A stretch of 64,000 nt of DNA. Source: an uncultured Enterobacteriaceae bacterium (GTDB taxonomy: Bacteria; Myxococcota_A; UBA9042). Both the position numbers and the translations under genes were made by a program. Under the pieces are notes generated by a model. It searched no databases, was not told the DNA's origin, and worked only from the letters and a program-made list of their open reading frames with translations. This document shows, piece after piece, positions 48,649 to 49,329 of this stretch (position 1 is its first letter; every line of letters starts with the position of its first letter). The DNA lies in NCBI GenBank assembly GCA_964438735.1, contig CAYTLW010000004.1, positions 51,953 to 115,952 of the forward strand, read 5' to 3'.

Positions 48649-49329
48649 ATGCCGGCTACCCTCGGCCGGCACCTGCAGGGCGCCTGCCAGCTTCTGCTGT
48701 CCGAGTTGTGCGCAATGCAAGACAATCGACCATCGCCACACAACCTGCAGGTCGCGCAGGATCGCCTGGCGCAGCGGCGCGAGCATTCGGGTCTGTGGGC
48801 GCAAGTGCCAGACAGACTCCTCGAGCGCATGATACGGGCGCAGACGGTCCAGTTGATCGCGGCGTCGGTGTTCACATCGGTGCTGCTCGCCGGCGCTCTG
48901 AGCTACTTGTTCGAGTTCCTGGTCTGGGGCGAGGCTCGACACGAAGTGACCGCCCTCGTCTGCGCTGTCGCGCTCTTCGTCTCGGGCTTCGTCGCGTCCT
49001 TGATTATCATCTTCATCCAGAAGATGCGGCGCGATGAACGATCAGCGAAGGAAGCGGAGATGCGCCTGAACGACGAGCTGCGGCAAGCGCTCGCGACGAT
49101 TCGCACGCTTCGCGGCATCATCCCAATCTGCGCCTGGTGCAAGTCGGTGCGCGATGACGAAGGGTATTGGAAGCGCGTCGATACCTATATCTCCGAAAAC
49201 TCGGCGGCGAGCTTCAGTCACGGGATGTGTCCGTGCTGCGAGGAGAAGATGGCGGCCGGTGTCGACGCGATTGCAGCGTCGCCGCCGAGCGAAGACAGCC
49301 CCCTGGGCCGACGGGTCGGCAACGAATAG
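48649..49329 (+). CDS. Small membrane protein with C-terminal Cys-rich zinc-ribbon-like module (putative signalling/sensor protein)
   Basis: SD GGAGG 5 nt before the ATG at 48649. Two TM helices, a coiled-coil (KMRRDERSAKEAEMRLNDELRQALATIRTL), then GIIPICAWCKSVRDDEGYWKRVDTYISENSAASFSHGMCPCCEEK. Confidence 0.65.
   Translation: MPATLGRHLQGACQLLLSELCAMQDNRPSPHNLQVAQDRLAQRREHSGLWAQVPDRLLERMIRAQTVQLIAASVFTSVLLAGALSYLFEFLVWGEARHEVTALVCAVALFVSGFVASLIIIFIQKMRRDERSAKEAEMRLNDELRQALATIRTLRGIIPICAWCKSVRDDEGYWKRVDTYISENSAASFSHGMCPCCEEKMAAGVDAIAASPPSEDSPLGRRVGNE

Follow-up and report, generated by a model that had tools for sequence, protein, structure and literature searches.

What does a bacterial membrane protein do that consists of little more than a transmembrane hairpin, a helix and a small cysteine-containing module at its C-terminus? 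This question is raised by an open reading frame (ORF) at positions 48649-49329 (+) of the window, the stretch of 64,000 nucleotides analysed here, which comes from an uncultured bacterium of the Myxococcota_A lineage UBA9042. The comparisons described below indicate that the encoded protein is very probably a genuine member of a widespread, uncurated family of output domains.

The gene and its membrane-anchored product

The ORF is complete and encodes 226 amino acids followed by a stop codon. It is a real gene and not a spurious ORF, which is ruled out by three observations: the GC content of its codon positions, a Shine-Dalgarno sequence and the presence of homologues at E-values of about 1e-24. 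The GC content is 0.64, 0.46 and 0.80 at the first, second and third codon position, respectively, which resembles the pattern of the neighbouring genes. The overall GC content of 0.636 and the GC3 value are slightly lower than those of the neighbours (GC3 of 0.87 in the adjacent radical SAM gene and of 0.83 in a nearby kinase gene; GC content of the window, 68%). The Shine-Dalgarno sequence GGAGG can be read at 48639-48643 (+), with 5 nt between it and the ATG. In another metagenome assembly, a 637-bp contig contains this gene with two substitutions; there, an independent gene call placed the start codon at the identical position. Searches of the locus for Rfam families, sigma-70-like promoters and intrinsic terminators were negative.

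The first 65 residues (48649-48843 (+)) form a cytoplasmic segment of orphan sequence, which has no Pfam match and no homologue in 40 related genomes, the sole exception being a 99% identical metagenome fragment. Residues 66-123 (48844-49017 (+)) were assigned by hydropathy and charge to a first transmembrane segment (TM1, ~66-93), an outer loop of six residues (GEARHE) and a second segment (TM2, ~100-123). Windowed hydropathy delimits the two hydrophobic stretches at ~66-93 and ~98-127, with cores at 66-93 and 100-123 and Kyte-Doolittle peaks of 1.95 and 2.80. Lysine and arginine residues are located on both cytoplasmic flanks; the hairpin therefore has an N-in/C-in orientation. Residues 124-155 (49018-49113 (+)) are predicted by AlphaFold2 (AF2) to form a helix, which runs unbroken from TM2 to the module and carries heptad-like hydrophobic residues at positions 140/141, 144, 148, 151 and 154. 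Among 113 homologues, the hydrophobic periodicity of this helix up to G156 peaks at 3.5 residues, and positions 151, 154 and 157/158 are fully conserved. The conserved module itself, delimited by alignments, a census of genera and the AF2 model, comprises residues 156-202 (49114-49254 (+)) and is followed by a tail rich in alanine, proline and serine (residues 203-226, 49255-49326 (+)), which is not conserved in comparison with 256 homologues. With a TM hairpin, a helix and the module only, the protein is a near-minimal member of its family; Pfam and NCBIfam models revealed no HisKA plus HATPase_c, GGDEF, EAL, HD-GYP or HTH domain in it. An earlier note on this DNA had described the order of hairpin, helix and cysteine module correctly, but had called the N-terminus, which is 65 residues long, short.

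Some metagenomic sequences diverge or end within this gene. Contig L101 (637 bp) tracks the window from 48518 to 49056, that is to codon 136 just before the module, and then continues into unrelated sequence; a contig of another sample ends at the same place (49066), and the bin 49106-49172 is not covered in run X4. The break in L101 could reflect either a strain variant in which the module is missing or replaced, or an assembly chimera.

The C-terminal module and its place in signalling proteins

In the window protein, the module reads G-I-I-P-I-C161-A-W-C164-K ... R168-D-D-x-G-x-W174 ... H191-G-M-C194-P-C-C197. Its size is ~50 residues, or ~65 residues with the conserved entry helix. A word-indexed search with the C-terminal part returned 114 proteins, and alignment A1 comprises 113 homologous segments. 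L154, C161, C164, K165, H191, C194 and C197 are invariant in these homologues, and G156, P159, I160, A162, R168, D170, G172, W174, E178, Y180, G192 and P195 are conserved in at least 90% of them. The window protein has the family pattern C-x2-C-x29-C-P-x-C with a histidine three residues before the third cysteine, the motif L-x-G-[LI]-[LI]-P at the end of the helix, and all of K165, R168, D169, D170, G172, W174 and Y180; at position 178, it contains aspartate instead of the usual glutamate, as do 6 of the 113 sequences. The core of the module carries a net negative charge (mean of -1.9 over the 113 sequences), and a basic stretch, C-K-K/S-x-R, follows the first knuckle. The conservation alignments (A1 and A5) were built from the best matches and are biased towards close relatives; the census of one genome per genus is less so. 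In this census, C31, C34, C64 and C67 are retained in more than 99% of the 3,306 carrier genera, H61 in 99%, W44 in 98.6%, R38 in 95% and K35 in 88% of the carriers. Of the five cysteines considered in the earlier note, four are thus conserved among carriers, while the fifth (C196 of the CPCC sequence) is not and is replaced by aspartate or glutamate in most carriers.

No characterized domain was found to cover this region. Residues 136-226 gave no match to Pfam-A even at E<=10 (hmmscan); no NCBIfam model covers the module in the window protein or in six other family members, and PADLOC and PHROGs contain no match to the window protein. Searches of PDB sequences with the single protein and with a profile yielded nothing above chance level (for example, 26 residues of 7yjw at E 0.015, or glutamate dehydrogenase at E>0.1), and the ESM Atlas returned unnamed hypothetical clusters and none of the named ones. 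A full-text literature search, which included the motif strings, retrieved no paper describing the module, but most subscription journals lay outside its coverage and a prior description is possible. As far as these searches reach, there is thus no curated family, solved structure or known function for the module, which agrees with the statement of the earlier note that no function had been assigned to it, and with the outcome of the HMMER check that this note had proposed.

Based on the alignment of 113 sequences, AF2 modelled the helix together with the module with a pLDDT of 89.1, and the module alone with 93.3. In the predicted order, the helix is followed by the L-x-G-L-L-P linker, a first CxxC knuckle, a beta-hairpin with the conserved D-D-x-G turn, a short helix (V-E-x-Y-I), a loop ending in F-[ST]-H-G, and C-P-x-C at the N-terminus of the last helix; the two CxxC knuckles are hence located on either side of the beta-hairpin and helix. 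When both AF2 models were compared with the PDB (Foldseek, exhaustive VIA-align), nothing significant was retrieved, the best and still insignificant match being a RING domain (Z 2.3, rmsd 2.4 over 36 residues; Foldseek E>1). The resemblance to a zinc ribbon suggested in the earlier note is not established by a model with the order knuckle, hairpin, helix, loop, knuckle and no significant PDB match. The prediction of a homodimer of helix and module with two zinc ions scored 0.40 against a mark of 0.42 and carries no weight for or against dimerization. The ZAS anti-sigma domain (H-x3-C-x2-C) likewise has a histidine shortly before a CxxC pair and an upstream cysteine ligand; however, the module has the spacing H-x2-C-x2-C, a second upstream cysteine and about half the size, and it does not match zf-HC2 (PF13490).

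The family is large. An exhaustive HMMER scan with residues 136-205 over 1.84 billion representatives, each of which stands for a cluster at 50% identity, detected 20,994 representative proteins at E<=1e-3, of which 14,794 remain at E<=1e-10. The module occurs in 3,306 of 36,145 genera (~9%; one genome per genus), which belong to 83 phyla. It is found in 546 of 1,153 genera of Desulfobacterota (47%), 471 of 949 of Verrucomicrobiota (50%), 174 of 288 of Nitrospirota (60%), 384 of 1,249 of Acidobacteriota (31%), 120 of 464 of Spirochaetota (26%) and at least 48 of 65 of Hydrogenedentota (~74%); Pseudomonadota (54 of 5,664, ~1%) and Bacillota (21 of 3,720, <1%) rarely carry it. The delta-proteobacteria and spirochaetes, to which the module had previously been ascribed, are therefore among its hosts but do not delimit its range. 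Most model organisms come from phyla in which the module is scarce, which may explain why it went unstudied.

Genomes often encode more than one member: two module genes are present in the genome studied here, and five to six matches were obtained in its relatives G002 and G013. The second module gene of this genome (contig C86; locus L006, 1492-2325 (-)) encodes 277 amino acids with the module at the C-terminus and variant residues (C-M-F-C-K-Q-I-K ... S-H-S-L-C-P-T-C); no 33-bp repeats of the kind described below are located nearby. The candidate G002:C880 was rejected as a full-length orthologue of the window protein, as it is a 555-aa protein of the type TM-PAS-PAS-module. Stand-alone short homologues that were examined are located on contigs of less than 1 kb and thus give no gene context.

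The position of the module within its proteins points to its role. In 242 of 256 proteins, it is located at the C-terminus; the tail behind the last cysteine has a median length of 16 residues and is not conserved. Upstream of it are PAS, REC, GAF, HAMP, dCache, CHASE, MASE3, MASE6-like (PF20966), DUF4118 (PF13493), Reg_prop/Y_Y_Y, TPR or VUPS domains; SBP_bac_3 and, rarely, other domains are also combined with it. Among 61 module proteins from diverse genomes, PAS was found in 25, REC in 13 and GAF in 5. HisKA, HATPase_c, GGDEF, EAL and HTH domains are absent from the 25 commonest families of this set, and none was present in the module proteins of the listings examined. These findings bear out the earlier view that sensor-type proteins end in this module where a kinase or GGDEF domain would be expected. 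In the minority of proteins with an internal module, it is followed by PilZ, by REC or by a second unit of input and module. Many proteins of 400-560 amino acids hold two modules and represent two such units in tandem, some with a PF20966 membrane domain and one with two REC domains.

A C-terminal place and a signalling-helix linker are typical of dimeric outputs such as HisKA and GGDEF (PMC1592074). The paper on the signalling helix mentions neither zinc nor cysteine. HisKA/HATPase kinases, GGDEF cyclases and class III nucleotide cyclases share with the module the C-terminal place, the inputs and the heptad signalling helix; in contrast to them, the module has only ~50 residues with four cysteines and a histidine, no nucleotide-binding or catalytic fold and no match to a family model. 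Since the module is C-terminal behind sensory and receiver inputs, is connected by a heptad linker and occurs where other known outputs are absent, it is interpreted as an output domain.

Alternatively, the module might not be an output but might itself sense redox state or metals, for instance as a thiol-disulfide switch or by means of an Fe(Cys)4 or Fe-S site resembling that of rubredoxin. Four invariant cysteines and one invariant histidine would suit this function, and the module is enriched in largely anaerobic lineages, namely in ~47% of the genera of Desulfobacterota and ~60% of those of Nitrospirota. Moreover, the spacing C-x2-C-x29-C-P-x-C equals that of the rubredoxins (PF00301) aligned here, which were taken from related genomes and likewise have CxxC and CPxC knuckles 29 residues apart with aromatic residues between them. 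However, the rubredoxin HMM matches neither the module (E<=10) nor any other sequence of this genome, profile-profile alignment (hhalign) covers only the seven columns of the second, CPxC knuckle with a probability of 8.6%, and the model of the module contains two additional helices. A sensory module would also leave the carriers with several inputs and no output, and response regulators consisting of REC and the module would make little sense. A role as a sensor is therefore considered unlikely, and the interpretation as an output domain is retained.

Repeats and neighbouring genes at the locus

The module gene is bracketed by copies of a 33-bp repeat, as had been noticed before. A tandem array of 3.8 copies (TRF, 94% matches; exact and one-mismatch copies confirmed) is located at 48459-48585 (+), within the 242 bp that separate the module ORF from the divergent radical SAM gene. 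Downstream of the ORF, a repeat search detected further copies at 49331-49371 (+), which consist of a 13-nt partial unit directly after the stop codon (49331-49343) and a 27-nt core copy with one mismatch (49345-49371), and which lie within the 61-bp convergent spacer before an amidohydrolase gene. The ORF is also flanked by a pair of 14-nt direct repeats, CGAATGGCGAGTTG at 48608-48621 (+) and CGAATAGCGAGTTG at 49323-49336 (+), which are identical in 13 of 14 positions and the second of which spans the stop codon.

The 33-bp unit has no matches in shuffled sequence and was not found elsewhere in the 8.15-Mb assembly, which is 93.5% complete. The array has no Rfam match and no consensus promoter or terminator, and it folds less well than shuffled sequence (z +2.25). 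Unitig depth in the source metagenomes (~37 versus ~11.6) agrees with roughly three identical copies; the metagenome contigs at the locus break inside the array, as de Bruijn assemblies do, and no form lacking the gene was seen. The public runs listed for the locus included no RNA data set. A diverged copy of the unit (CGCCTGGCACCCAACAAG) was detected on another contig of the same metagenomes (runs X2 and X5; pieces matching 48453-48485). Repeats of this kind are therefore present in the community outside this locus, or in sequence of this genome that is missing from the assembly. Of the genes at the locus, only that for the radical SAM protein recurs in related genomes, and an insertion can thus not be dated by synteny. 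The repeat data, the slightly lower GC content of the gene and the lack of synteny are compatible with a lineage-specific insertion or an operator array. The repeats could serve as operators or be the trace left by recombination; they are a DNA feature of this lineage and locus, separate from the general biology of the family.

A second alternative would tie the repeats to the protein: the module would be a dimeric DNA-binding zinc finger, the repeats its operators and the window protein a membrane-tethered, ToxR-like autoregulator. The repeats are confined to the surroundings of the module gene in 8.15 Mb, they recur about every three helical turns in the promoter region, and they do not resemble a structured RNA; the basic C-K-K/S-x-R stretch would suit contact with DNA. 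However, the core of the module is net acidic, which speaks against DNA binding in general, numerous carriers are integral to the membrane, and no known DNA-binding fold was matched. In addition, the second paralogue of the genome has no such repeats, and the repeat is absent upstream of the radical SAM orthologues at six related loci. Operator binding by the module is therefore rather improbable.

Gene neighbourhoods do not single out a partner of the module. The 40 co-directional adjacent genes in diverse genomes comprise 68 Pfam families, the commonest of which are REC (5), PAS (4) and HATPase_c (3), and no family recurs beyond these generic ones (at most 5 of 40). All-against-all clustering of ~1,090 ORFs from 80 loci likewise revealed no recurrent neighbour except in orthologous loci of Nitrospira. 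The absence of a linked partner is consistent with a target that is encoded elsewhere. At nine loci of Nitrospira, a response regulator gene of the REC-module type is followed, ~50 nt downstream, by the gene for a REC-GGDEF diguanylate cyclase; a YqeY-like gene lies upstream of this gene pair (L039, L040, L051, L077, L080, L083 and related loci, ~7600-9300).

These loci bear on a third alternative, in which a nucleotide second messenger such as c-di-GMP would be bound by the module or elicit a response from it, or the module would act on the network of this messenger. Besides the Nitrospira gene pairs, PilZ follows directly after the module in 3 of 10 proteins with an internal module, and the conserved arginine, aspartate, tryptophan, glutamate and histidine residues could resemble a ligand site. 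However, the Nitrospira loci are orthologous and therefore count as one single observation, and no known c-di-GMP-binding motif is present. Moreover, a GGDEF gene is located within 3 kb in only 9 of 300 carriers versus 3 at random places (3/75, <3/75 and 3/147 by score band). This link to second messengers is accordingly given a low probability, and the preferred reading remains an output domain with a common target.

The radical SAM gene (46937-48406 (-)), which is divergent from the module gene, encodes 489 amino acids with an N-terminal extension of ~140 residues without a domain match, and shows weak likeness to HxsC4, TrsS, MoaA and prokaryotic viperin models, all far below the cut-offs. 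Its orthologues, with 55-58% identity, occur in 11 of 24 related genomes of the same family that were searched; at the six loci examined, another gene lies upstream of them and no module gene adjoins them. A partnership of the module protein with this enzyme, which the earlier note had raised by proposing an interaction screen, is most improbable, for example as its substrate, scaffold or regulator: the genes are adjacent with a common intergenic region and a cysteine-rich C-terminus could in principle be a maturation target, but those six loci and the overall frequency of Radical_SAM genes within 5 kb of carriers (21 of 300 versus 15 at random places; 6/75, 6/75 and 9/147 by score band) lend it no comparative support.

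Further upstream, two adjacent genes encode bPH_2 membrane proteins (YdbS/YdbT-like bacterial PH domain; 45607-46119 (+) and ~46100-46888 (+)), and a hybrid histidine kinase with REC and Hpt domains is encoded at 42636-44684 (-). Downstream, large secreted cysteine-rich repeat proteins with motifs of the type C-x-D-x-N-x-C-T are encoded at 51381-52691 (+), 52857-54854 (+) and 55609-56190, accompanied in the window by a 117-bp tandem coding repeat. A similar cysteine-rich protein adjoins the second module gene on contig C86.

A possible mechanism and its implications

On balance, with modest confidence, the window protein is regarded as a minimal membrane-anchored signalling protein, the output of which is a widespread, uncurated, putative metal-binding domain whose paired heads would bind a conserved target. 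The four cysteines, possibly together with the nearby histidine, would hold one structural metal ion, most likely zinc, and a parallel coiled coil would keep two heads side by side. A signal, sensed in this protein by the N-terminal segment or the TM hairpin and in other members by PAS, REC or GAF domains, could shift the register of the helix or the geometry of the dimer, thereby altering the binding of the paired heads to their target. The target would probably be a single component of the cytoplasm, common and highly conserved and most likely a protein. The retention of polar residues on the surface, in 83 phyla and between paralogues, favours a common target over partners specific to the gene neighbourhood. 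That K165, R168, D170, E178 and H191 are so highly conserved would fit a small-ligand or catalytic site equally well. The specific mechanism, a dimeric zinc head that binds a conserved protein target, is hence put forward only tentatively.

In DksA/TraR (PF01258) and the N-terminal zinc-binding domain of ClpX (PF06689), a small Cys4 domain is combined with a coiled coil or a dimer and serves to dock on a conserved cellular machine. Their likeness to the module serves as a lead only, as there is neither a Pfam match at E<=10 nor a structural match in the PDB; in addition, the coiled coil of DksA is an antiparallel hairpin ahead of the finger within one chain and thereby differs from that of the module.

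It appears quite possible, if somewhat short of probable, that the module represents a major, so far unrecognized class of outputs, which couples PAS, REC, GAF and membrane sensors to one universal target or ligand via a dimeric metal-finger head. If this is true, an output with a universal target would differ from phosphotransfer, nucleotide cyclases and DNA-binding effectors. Censuses of bacterial signalling proteins classify by output domain, and current annotations call the module proteins no more than "PAS domain S-box protein", "response regulator" or "hypothetical"; without names based on an output, the route by which they signal stays hidden. The family is concentrated in phyla of environmental importance that have no model organisms, which include sulfate reducers, nitrite oxidizers, Verrucomicrobiota and Acidobacteriota. 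The window protein is near-minimal and therefore a convenient construct for biochemistry. Identification of the target would give a function to thousands of sensors and could reveal new wiring.
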